Made by a program: the position numbers and the translations under genes
Origin: a virus
DNA length: 37,793 bases
Strand: one strand, 5' to 3'
Virus genome (UHGV): UHGV-0272092
Notes under the pieces: generated by a model
The model's input: only the letters and a program-made list of their open reading frames with translations
Databases searched by the model: none
Told to the model about the DNA's origin: nothing
Part shown: positions 25,304 through 31,751 of the stretch, piece by piece
Position numbering within the stretch: the stretch's first letter is position 1
Layout of the letters: every line of letters begins with the position of its first letter

Positions 25304-25380
25304 GTGGCATTAGCTCAGTTGGACAGAGCAACCGCCTTCTAAGCGGTTGGTCGCAGGTTCGAATCCTGCATGCCACGCCA
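25304..25380 (+). tRNA. tRNA-Arg (anticodon UCU), 77 nt including CCA
   Basis: Hand-folded cloverleaf: acceptor GTGGCAT/ATGCCAC, D-stem GCTC/GAGC, anticodon stem ACCGC/GCGGT with loop CTTCTAA, T-stem GCAGG/CCTGC with loop TTCGAAT, discriminator G, CCA. Confidence 0.85.
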
Positions 25381-29661: not shown

Positions 29662-29925
29662 TTATCCTGCTGTGCTTTCAACTGATGAGGGGAACAAAAT
29701 CTTTTCATCAAACCCTGCATTCATATCATGAACAGCAACACACCAATCCATTGACGAACGATTATCAAGAGCCTCCATGATTTCATCCATGCGGCGCAGG
29801 TCATACAGGTAAATGCTTTTATCGCCAATGGTGTAAAAACCAATTTTTTTCGGTGATGGGCAGCGATCAAGAACGTCCTGTAATTCATTCAACCATGCCC
29901 GTTCTTTTTTTGTTAAAGTTGCCAT
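29662..29925 (-). CDS. hypothetical protein (87 aa)
   Basis: ATG preceded by AAGGAGAG within the conserved junction cassette. Confidence 0.45.
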   Translation of the reverse strand: MATLTKKERAWLNELQDVLDRCPSPKKIGFYTIGDKSIYLYDLRRMDEIMEALDNRSSMDWCVAVHDMNAGFDEKILFPSSVESTAG

Positions 29926-29926
29926 A

Positions 29927-30418
29927 TCACTCTCCTTTGATGCGAATGCCAGTGGTACTCATTCTCCTGATTTCCCAGAGCACACGAGGAACACCACCGT
30001 TTCCGACCGGATCGCGTTTACTCCGCAGGGCGACGCTTGATTCCGCCCAGCTTTTTCTTGGAGGAAGCTCTTTCACACGAACAAAACCAGCTGCGCGAAG
30101 AGATGCTCCTGATTCATCTGCCCGGGTGTACGTAATACAACGTTGATAACCCATAGCTTTTGCTGCCCGCCAGACAGCACCATAAAGCGCGCTGTTAGCG
30201 TTGCGTTCTCCTGTGGTACATGTGCGATTTACTTCAAGCGTTAATCCATCGTCCAAATGTCGTGCAACAGGTCGACCGGCTGTCGCCACACCTATCAATT
30301 CTCCGGCATCATTTCTCAGACCAATGCTGAATTTATGCCCCACCGGGGGTTTATTGTGTCGGTGATGTCTGGATATAAATGCCTTCGCAACACGAAGAGT
30401 AACCGGTGAAATCTGCAC
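29927..30418 (-). CDS. GNAT-like fold protein (putative N-acyltransferase), about 163 aa
   Basis: Pattern IGVATAGRP ... NANSALYGAVWRAAKAMGY ... ASLRAAGF is consistent with a GNAT-type fold. Start set at GTG 30418 (AAGGAG 7 nt upstream); track start is TTG 30457. Confidence 0.4.
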   Translation of the reverse strand: MQISPVTLRVAKAFISRHHRHNKPPVGHKFSIGLRNDAGELIGVATAGRPVARHLDDGLTLEVNRTCTTGERNANSALYGAVWRAAKAMGYQRCITYTRADESGASLRAAGFVRVKELPPRKSWAESSVALRSKRDPVGNGGVPRVLWEIRRMSTTGIRIKGE

Positions 30419-30420
30419 TC

Positions 30421-31149
30421 TCACTCTCCTTTGATACCAATGTTTACAGTCTGGCAAGCTTCTCTGAGCACCCAGTCAATAGCGTCTTTCCATGCTCCGG
30501 TTTCGACTGACGGATTTTCACGCTTAACCTGTTCATAGAAGCGCACTGCTTTAACCAGTCCTTCCGGTACTACTGGCGATGGCTGTTTAGCTTCTAAATC
30601 AGCAATTCTGTCAACCACGGCATCGACAGCATCTGAAAAGCCGAACCAGTTACTCCACTCCGGTCTGTCCCCGGTTGCTGCAAAGTACATATCAGCTAAA
30701 GCAGACTCAGCATGGTCACGCTCATTGATGAGTTGCTCTTCGCTTTTCTCCAGTTCAGCAATACGATTACTTCCATCCGAGATAACACCTTCGTAATACT
30801 CACGCTGCTCGTTGAGTTTTGATTTTGTCTCCTCAAGCTCAACACGCAGCTTCCCTACCGTTAGCGCAATATCCTCGTTCTCCTGGTCGCGGCGTTTGAT
30901 GTATTGCTGGTTTCTTTCCCGTTCATCCAGCAGTGCAAGCACGGTAGCCGGATTAGCCTTGGCAACAAAATCCCGGACTGGCTTACAATCAATCTCCGCA
31001 ATGGGTTGATACGATGTGTAGCCATGCTGTCTTGTATAACTACCGTGACGAATAACGAAAAAATCACCATTTATTTTTTTAGCCTGCCACTTATCTTCAC
31101 CGGCTTTCTCTGCCGCTTCACGCAGTGCATGATAGTTAATTTTGTTCAC
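30421..31149 (-). CDS. Ead/Ea22-like protein (242 aa)
   Basis: Coiled-coil central region and overall resemblance to Ea22-like early proteins of lambdoid phages, from memory. Confidence 0.45.
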   Translation of the reverse strand: MNKINYHALREAAEKAGEDKWQAKKINGDFFVIRHGSYTRQHGYTSYQPIAEIDCKPVRDFVAKANPATVLALLDERERNQQYIKRRDQENEDIALTVGKLRVELEETKSKLNEQREYYEGVISDGSNRIAELEKSEEQLINERDHAESALADMYFAATGDRPEWSNWFGFSDAVDAVVDRIADLEAKQPSPVVPEGLVKAVRFYEQVKRENPSVETGAWKDAIDWVLREACQTVNIGIKGE

Positions 31150-31751
31150 TGGTTGCCTCCTTTGCGAAGCTCTGCGGCAAAGTCAACTAACCACTCGGTC
31201 ATTTCAACCTTCCCTACCAGGTCTGAACCAGGAAACATACAGCAATCACTCTGCGCCGCTTTGAAATCCTTATACTCATATTCCTGAGCCACCAGATTTT
31301 TTGCAGCTTCTATAACAGCATCCACCCCCTGCGCCCGTACTTCAGCCAGGAAAGCGTCGGTGGCTTGGGTTTCGATATCGTTAATTTCAGGAAGAATCTC
31401 TTCCCATGTAGCGATATCGCCATTCAAATGCCATCCGGCAATTCCACTGGAGTTATCCGCAACACTGCGAACGGCTTCAATAGTTTCATGCATTGCCGCA
31501 TTCTCCGCTGCCAGCGCCGAAAACTTCTCGTGTGCCAACTTAACAGCCGCATCAGCCTGCTTAATTGACTCAATCGCTTTCTGCTGGTCTTCGGCCAGCG
31601 CATTAGCACGCACCAGTTGCACTTCCAGTTGCGTTGCCAAATCGCTGATCAGCTTTGCCACACTGCGCATATCAACGGCACCACATTCTGCTTTCAGTTC
31701 CGAAGCCATCTCATGCCCGGCGGCAACTAACCCTTTGATATTACTTTCCAT
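31146..31751 (-). CDS. Ead/Ea22-like protein (201 aa)
   Basis: Ala/Glu-rich coiled-coil protein, 4-nt overlap with the downstream gene. Confidence 0.4.
   Translation of the reverse strand: MESNIKGLVAAGHEMASELKAECGAVDMRSVAKLISDLATQLEVQLVRANALAEDQQKAIESIKQADAAVKLAHEKFSALAAENAAMHETIEAVRSVADNSSGIAGWHLNGDIATWEEILPEINDIETQATDAFLAEVRAQGVDAVIEAAKNLVAQEYEYKDFKAAQSDCCMFPGSDLVGKVEMTEWLVDFAAELRKGGNQ

Follow-up and report, generated by a model that had tools for sequence, protein, structure and literature searches.

An XF1762-family GNAT gene in a phiV10-like phage genome encodes a predicted minimal, distant relative of the Mu DNA modification protein Mom

We analysed the virus genome UHGV-0272092 over its full stretch of 37,793 nucleotides (hereafter the window), whose structural half shares 97–98% identity with temperate podophages of the phiV10-like group, among them vB_EcoP_ZX5 and phiV10. 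The gene considered here is a minus-strand open reading frame (ORF) at positions 29927–30418, with a TGA stop ending at 29927 and a product of 163 aa (Table 1). Along the minus strand it is preceded by O-like (DnaT-domain) and lambda-P-like replication genes, a DUF1064 gene and two Ead/Ea22-like genes, and is followed by an 87-aa ORF, a DUF551 gene, a PHROG 536 regulator and the small and then the large terminase genes. Because of its position in this co-directional array, the gene is expected to be expressed together with the replication genes, unlike the late, com-controlled mom of phage Mu: in Mu, com overlaps mom and the promoter is a late one under Dam/C control, whereas the gene described here lies in an early/replication operon with no com. 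Homologues are encoded in 32 phage records. ZX5 and phiV10 are not among these, and the gene is therefore accessory in the phiV10-like lineage. No DNA methyltransferase is encoded in the window. The two Ead/Ea22-like coiled-coil genes upstream (30421–31149 and 31146–31751, both minus) match overlapping sets of PHROGs (250, 368), and the first also weakly matches a PHROG for a host RecBCD nuclease inhibitor (E 1.5e-7). Between the structural and packaging regions, and opposite in strand to its neighbouring genes, lies a tRNA-Arg gene with anticodon TCT, for the rare AGA codon (25304–25380, plus strand); the idea that a tRNA-Gly of the phage supplies a Mom-like reaction was considered and rejected, as this tRNA-Arg(TCT) is the only tRNA in the window.

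Table 1. Coordinates of the XF1762-family gene, its predicted parts and adjoining features in the window.
Feature	Position	Strand	Details and basis
XF1762-family (minimal Mom-like) GNAT gene	29927..30418	minus	GTG start, TGA stop, 163 aa
Upstream copy of 15-bp junction ATCAAAGGAGAGTGA	30421..30435	minus	Ea22-like gene 3' end/stop and XF1762 Shine-Dalgarno
Predicted active-site core, E62-V-N-R65 (beta4 end) to N73-A-N-S76 (alpha3 start)	30191..30235	minus	hhalign mapping
Basic low-confidence loop, residues 119-144, between beta6 and beta7	29987..30064	minus	AlphaFold2, conservation
C-terminal tail codons (about residues 155-163, TTGIRIKGE) and stop	29927..29956	minus	Outside GNAT domain
Downstream copy of 15-bp junction ATCAAAGGAGAGTGA	29927..29941	minus	XF1762 last codons/stop and next gene's Shine-Dalgarno
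87-aa ORF, PHROG 1714	29662..29925	minus	ATG 1 nt past XF1762 stop; PHROG match

An earlier, sequence-only reading of this locus gave no strand and had left the start codon uncertain between TTG 30457 and GTG 30418. There are three in-frame candidates, TTG 30457 (176 aa), GTG 30424 (165 aa) and GTG 30418 (163 aa), among which GTG 30418 is the best supported by the sequence. This choice follows from the spacing of the Shine-Dalgarno sequence AAAGGAGAG, which lies 7 nt 5' of GTG 30418 and has its core only 1 nt from GTG 30424; from the 492-nt gene annotated in RefSeq, in phage Kapi1 and PhiR44_2 alike; from many close IMG/VR relatives that carry an ATG at the same position (GAGAATG, as against GAGAGTG here); and from alignments of distant family homologues, which begin at residue 1 of the 163-aa product. 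The stop codon of the upstream gene is the TGA at 30421–30423, and the longer alternative from TTG 30457 would overlap that gene by 37 nt.

The sequence-only reading had also assigned the product to no nameable family, and on this point it was wrong. The protein matches the NCBIfam equivalog model NF045478, “XF1762 family protein”, with 203.7 bits (E 1e-60; curated cutoff 50 bits) across profile positions 2–130 of 143, leaving the C-terminal 13 positions unmatched, and it scores 143.8 bits (E 1.2e-41) against PHROG 1384, “Mom-like DNA modification protein”. Identical RefSeq proteins already bear the name “XF1762 family protein”, and the gene product is thus already catalogued as an entity and is an ordinary member of that family. 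Its sole Pfam match is to PF25680 (Mom) at 22.1 bits (E 1.3e-4), below the gathering threshold of 27.1 bits and confined to profile positions 3–126 of 202, the N-terminal two thirds; some other XF1762 members exceed this threshold marginally (27.3–28.1 bits). Given the strength of the NCBIfam match, more than 5000 homologues and 3317 family clusters at 50% identity, the ORF, which the earlier reading had taken as a gene, is by these sequence comparisons certainly real, far beyond chance.

A word-indexed search returned 5186 matches for XF1762 against 843 for canonical Mom, and an exhaustive search yielded the 3317 XF1762 clusters; judged by these searches, XF1762 seems to exceed canonical Mom several-fold in size. 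More than 10 phyla are represented among the phages and mobile elements that carry its members. Phage homologues occur in Pectobacterium, Burkholderia, Mycobacterium, Microbacterium, Streptomyces, Synechococcus, Pelagibacter, Pseudomonas and Vibrio phages, and further homologues in genomes and metagenome-assembled genomes (MAGs) of Bacillota, Actinomycetota, Pseudomonadota, Acidobacteriota, Planctomycetota, Bacteroidota and other groups. Relatives within XF1762/PHROG 1384 include Burkholderia phage phi1026b gp66, Pectobacterium phage ZF40 gp36 and Microbacterium phage Min1 gp31. The protein described here has in common with the family a GNAT core of about 150 aa, a phage or prophage setting and the invariant motifs H-R-H, G-R-P-x-x-R, E-x-N/T-R, N-x-x-S, T-Y-T, E-x-G-x-S-L and W, and it differs from the family in 9–13 extra C-terminal residues, encoded by an Ea22-type junction (see below). 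Literature searches for XF1762 and Mom-like proteins found no experimental work on the XF1762 family. Several members have unusual architectures or hosts. Two proteins (P0276, 396 aa; P0287, 295 aa) each match the query in two separate stretches, suggesting tandem duplicated Mom-like domains; a 968-aa protein (P0364) combines DUF6884 with an XF1762 domain, and another (P0362) combines a beta-lactamase-fold domain with one. The best genome match of one Bacillota-type member (68% identity) is to a contig of a Thermoplasmatota archaeon MAG (DATEUP010000275.1, L177 5001–5438), which could mean either that the contig was wrongly binned or that an archaeal virus or mobile element carries the XF1762 family.

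AlphaFold2 models built from a shallow alignment (pLDDT 84.5) and from a diverse alignment (pLDDT 90.1, pTM 0.82) both have the GNAT order beta1-alpha1(-alpha2)-beta2-beta3-beta4-alpha3-beta5-alpha4-beta6-beta7 around a mixed beta-sheet, and the predicted model is structurally similar to solved GNATs. The GNAT-type fold proposed in the sequence-only reading is therefore borne out by prediction, in a structure check that could have returned a non-GNAT fold; only its statement about the family falls. Fold comparison also recovered Mom (PDB 8BV8), which was not retrieved by PDB sequence searches with either the single protein or the family profile, neither of which gave a significant match. The pyrophosphate-binding loop of acetyl-CoA-using GNATs, Q/R-x-x-G-x-G/A between beta4 and alpha3, fits no register of the segment R65-T-C-T-T-G-E-R-N-A-N-S76-A-L-Y-G-A, and a Mom-type N-x-x-S occupies the start of helix alpha3. 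By hhalign, E62-V-N-R65 ... N73-A-N-S76 corresponds to E108-L-N-R111 ... N121-S-E-S124 of Mom, and 90% or more of 42 diverse family members retain each of E62, R65, N73 and S76. About 30 positions reach 90% conservation or more when clusters sharing no more than 50% identity are compared, and they are concentrated in the elements of the GNAT active-site cleft (beta4 end, alpha3 start, beta5 and the beta5-alpha4 loop). The stretch from residue 119 to 144 is modelled with pLDDT 57–69 and two very short helices, and contains a near-invariant W124 and R132. The protein as a whole is strongly basic (pI 11.0, net charge +15).

Mu Mom (PF25680; PDB 8BV8) is a Gly-tRNA(Gly)-dependent GNAT that glycylates the N6 of dA in double-stranded DNA, after which the glycylated dA rearranges to N6-carbamoylmethyl-dA (PMC13219725). 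Its residues R111, S124 and R151 are essential, and deletion of its HTH-like insertion (about residues 175–209) abolishes activity (PMC13219725); R111 is kept in Mom homologues and not across GNATs generally (bioRxiv 10.1101/861617). A direct BLASTP comparison of the query with Mu Mom is not significant (E 0.27), with LEVNR already paired with MELNR. Profile-profile comparisons with Mom give E-values of 5e-4 to 2e-3 and probabilities of 14–31%, in a constant register over up to 144 columns, and when 150 diverse XF1762 representatives were scanned one by one, 81 matched Pfam Mom at E<1e-3, the best at 9e-9, and none matched another GNAT family of Pfam. With a BLASTP E-value of 0.27 and a profile probability of at most 31%, the case for homology to Mom consists of several weak, agreeing signals, none of them strong. 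The XF1762 NCBIfam model is matched by phi1026b gp66, a Pelagibacter phage protein and metagenomic representatives and not by Mu Mom, for which reason we regard XF1762 and Mom as sister families rather than one.

Residues were mapped through sequence alignments only, using 42 family members 45–65% identical to the query. The pairs recovered (query = Mom) are H19 = H58, E62 = E108, R65 = R111, N73-x-x-S76 = N121-x-x-S124, E102 = E150 and W124 = W181, and each of the seven query residues H19, E62, R65, N73, S76, E102 and W124 is at least 90% conserved. R65 aligns with Mom R111 in every profile alignment and is present in 42/42 members, N73 in 38/42 and S76 in 39/42. Much else of Mom is missing or replaced. 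The query is 163 aa long as against 241 for Mom, and starts at about Mom residue 40, so that residues 1–39, comprising the N-terminal extension with its basic 11–19 arm, are absent. Mom W48, at the dimer interface, is R9 in the query; D149, located after beta5 like R151, is retained as D101, and kept in only 16/42 family members; R151 appears from the alignment to fall in a 4-residue deletion; and Y159, in alpha4, is aligned with L107. In place of the HTH-like insertion, some 35 aa long in Mom (about 175–209, between beta6 and beta7), the query has a basic loop of about 26 aa (119–144), about 20 aa shorter, which shares only its leading Trp (W124 = W181) with the Mom insertion. On these alignments the XF1762 protein is a minimal, distant and reduced relative of Mom, and since several of the features that define Mom are lacking it should not be classed as an orthologue of Mom.

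To place the gene in its wider setting, we clustered all ORFs lying within 3.5 kb of the homologue at 158 diverse loci, 80 of them viral and 78 genomic. N6_N4 and C5 methylases (Pfam-confirmed) make up the two largest neighbour clusters, and iterated HMMs find a methyltransferase at 50/158 loci, nearly always on the same strand, with a density of 70 per kb in the nearest 300 nt that drops to 11 per kb at distances above 1 kb; these figures come from loci that are not independent and from crude ORF calling, and methyltransferases often lie in the early module anyway. The other 108/158 loci have no methyltransferase nearby. Individual cases include phi1026b, where the XF1762 gene overlaps a downstream DNA methyltransferase gene that is followed by ParB, an adjacency lacking at the locus described here; a Mycobacterium abscessus prophage with a methyltransferase 1 kb 5' of the homologue; and a metagenomic prophage with a C5 methylase and a Lar-like restriction-alleviation gene upstream. 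Fusions among the representatives join the XF1762 domain, among others, to a C5 DNA methylase, a D12 N6-adenine methylase, PAPS reductase (2) and ArdC-N, and also to YodL with LPD28, DUF4316, RepA_N and a serine recombinase.

Two further neighbourhood patterns were seen. The homologue repeatedly sits just 5' of terminase genes in unrelated phages (L087 6001–6456; ZF40, L004; Min1, L093), and in Pelagibacter phage HTVC034P (L095 809–1276) it abuts TerL at the position expected of the small terminase. A protein of about 300 aa, whose radical-SAM signature (CxxxCxxC) is weak and falls below the Pfam cutoff (E 1e-4), adjoins homologues on the same strand at L242 5336–6247 and at 5 other, mostly Bacillota, loci, and may be modification-related.

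Within the window, the gene is bounded by an exact direct repeat of 15 bp, ATCAAAGGAGAGTGA, which occurs in 2 copies where 0.08 would be expected by chance; each copy combines the end and stop codon of one gene with the Shine-Dalgarno sequence of the next. An “empty site” is found on the E. coli plasmid pIso00270_01, where an Ea22-like gene is joined to the 87-aa ORF by a single junction. Among 75 close related loci, 38 carry the junction upstream and 51 downstream, where at least 7 different genes come after it; in related phages the junction connects many different pairs of genes. The repeat looks like a recombination linker that shuffles ea/nin-type cassettes, and the sequence identifies the XF1762 gene as a mobile cassette. 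The C-terminal tail TTGIRIKGE has the lowest pLDDT in the model and is absent from most members (these end at about residue 150). The last ~27 nt of the gene, which encode TGIRIKGE of this tail, are in a DNA alignment nearly identical to the 3' end of the Ea22-like gene, and the tail appears to derive from an Ea22-type gene.

The distribution of the cassette points the same way. Segment 29662–30418 (757 bp), which spans both the XF1762 gene and the 87-aa ORF, recurs with 100% identity in a P2-like prophage on the E. coli NU14 chromosome (L257 9001–9757), where it is placed between replication/ParM genes and the portal gene; an identical segment in a P2-like prophage and a phiV10-like podophage points to recent exchange between unrelated phage types. 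The P22-like phage Kapi1 encodes a 92%-identical protein in its int-proximal ea region. None of 5426 complete E. coli genomes holds at least 80% of the 6.6-kb replication-to-terminase segment 27400–34000 in one place, 3868 of them matching parts of it, and this combination of cassettes is unusual. The arrangement is that of classic lambdoid mosaicism, and the spread of the cassette across phage types shows the protein to be a stand-alone module with no fixed partner.

What the protein does has to be judged from these lines of evidence together. We consider Mom-like acylation or aminoacylation of DNA, serving anti-restriction, to be the best explanation, because it accounts for the GNAT fold, the homology signal to Mom and to no other GNAT family of Pfam, the retention of R65 and N-x-x-S, the pI of 11, the fusions and adjacency to methyltransferases and the mobility of the cassette; we hold the chances of its being right to be about even. 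The parts of this reading differ in strength: that the target is DNA is an evenly balanced proposition, and that the chemistry is tRNA-dependent aminoacylation is rather doubtful.

The weightiest alternative, still on the unlikely side in our estimate, is a conventional acyl-CoA GNAT that acts on a non-DNA substrate (a protein, tRNA or other RNA, a small molecule or a defence signal) in host takeover or anti-defence, so that the likeness to Mom would reflect ancestry. Against this alternative, the high pI suits a nucleic-acid substrate, though a tRNA or RNA as well as DNA; not one of the 150 representatives matches an acetyl-CoA GNAT Pfam family at E<1e-3, where more than half match Mom; the Q/R-x-x-G-x-G/A loop is replaced by the Mom-type N-x-x-S and the Mom-specific Arg is invariant; and fusions and gene adjacency point to DNA methyltransferases and anti-restriction domains. 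A second possibility, a GNAT-fold accessory that is catalytically inactive or purely nucleic-acid-binding, for instance a specificity or regulatory partner for methyltransferases or packaging, would make sense of the loss of R151, Y159 and the insertion of Mom, of the very basic protein and of its recurrence just 5' of terminase genes in unrelated phages. We nonetheless think it improbable, since some 30 strongly conserved positions concentrated in the active-site cleft form a pattern typical of an enzyme, and since more than two thirds of the surveyed loci have no methyltransferase nearby for it to partner.

FemX-type aminoacyl transferases and the toxins TacT and AtaT have the GNAT fold in common with the XF1762 protein and have been put forward as models of the way in which Mom engages the CCA end of tRNA (Silva et al., PMC13219725); the basic surface of the XF1762 protein is compatible with tRNA binding of the FemX/TacT kind, whereas there is no detectable sequence relationship to these proteins, no antitoxin partner and a different genomic context. 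That the protein is itself the toxin of a GNAT type II toxin-antitoxin pair (TacT/AtaT/ItaT-like), acetylating charged tRNA with the small adjacent ORF as antitoxin, strikes us as highly improbable. The fold, the basic character, a tRNA interface that is plausible by analogy with Mom and TacT, and an 87-aa ORF beginning 1 nt past the stop codon could all be read in its favour. Antitoxin genes of GNAT toxins, however, generally sit upstream of the toxin, and here the ORF is downstream; it has no Pfam match, no antitoxin domain and no PADLOC match; and other phages have a different downstream neighbour. The XF1762 protein likewise lacks both a PADLOC match and an acetyl-CoA GNAT Pfam match, and a scan with the PADLOC defence models gave no relevant match. 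The distribution of the 87-aa ORF in E. coli is also telling: the XF1762 gene is present in 161/5426 complete genomes and the 757-bp query has megablast matches in 1106/5426, and among the partial matches listed nearly all cover just the 87-aa ORF part, which makes this ORF about seven times more widespread than the XF1762 gene and shows that it also occurs alone. It was accordingly rejected as a dedicated partner or antitoxin, its distribution being independent of the GNAT gene.

If DNA modification is the right reading, the XF1762 gene would be co-transcribed with the replication genes during lytic growth, and the enzyme would bind double-stranded DNA and, drawing on an activated donor, would acylate or aminoacylate an exocyclic base amine, which by analogy would be adenine N6. 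The donor might be an aminoacyl-tRNA, as in Mom, or, less likely, acyl-CoA, and the outcome would be phage DNA that resists host restriction endonucleases before it is packaged. Since the HTH-like insertion, the N-terminal basic arm, R151 and Y159 are all absent, DNA recognition is probably unlike that of Mom, and for the same reason the donor or the product may also differ.

More broadly, and quite tentatively, the XF1762 family may represent widespread, minimal, single-protein DNA hypermodification enzymes that use charged tRNA or another activated acyl donor to place an acyl or aminoacyl mark on DNA bases, dispense with the HTH-like insertion and possibly have other amino acid, base or sequence specificities; were this so, Mom-type chemistry would be common among temperate phages and not a curiosity of Mu-like ones. 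The chemistry of Mom, the transfer of glycine from tRNA to adenine in double-stranded DNA, was settled only recently, in a study that urges work on “Mom-like GNAT enzymes” (Nat Commun 2026, PMC13219725). The E. coli prophage copy of the XF1762 gene is short and clonable and belongs to a tractable host, which makes it a convenient test case for the questions at stake: whether a GNAT core without the insertion that is essential in Mom can modify DNA, and which mark it leaves. A negative answer would mean that annotations as “Mom-like DNA modification protein” have been over-propagated; a positive one would point to a common, overlooked anti-restriction modification in temperate phages, with a bearing on host range in phage therapy and on methylome data.
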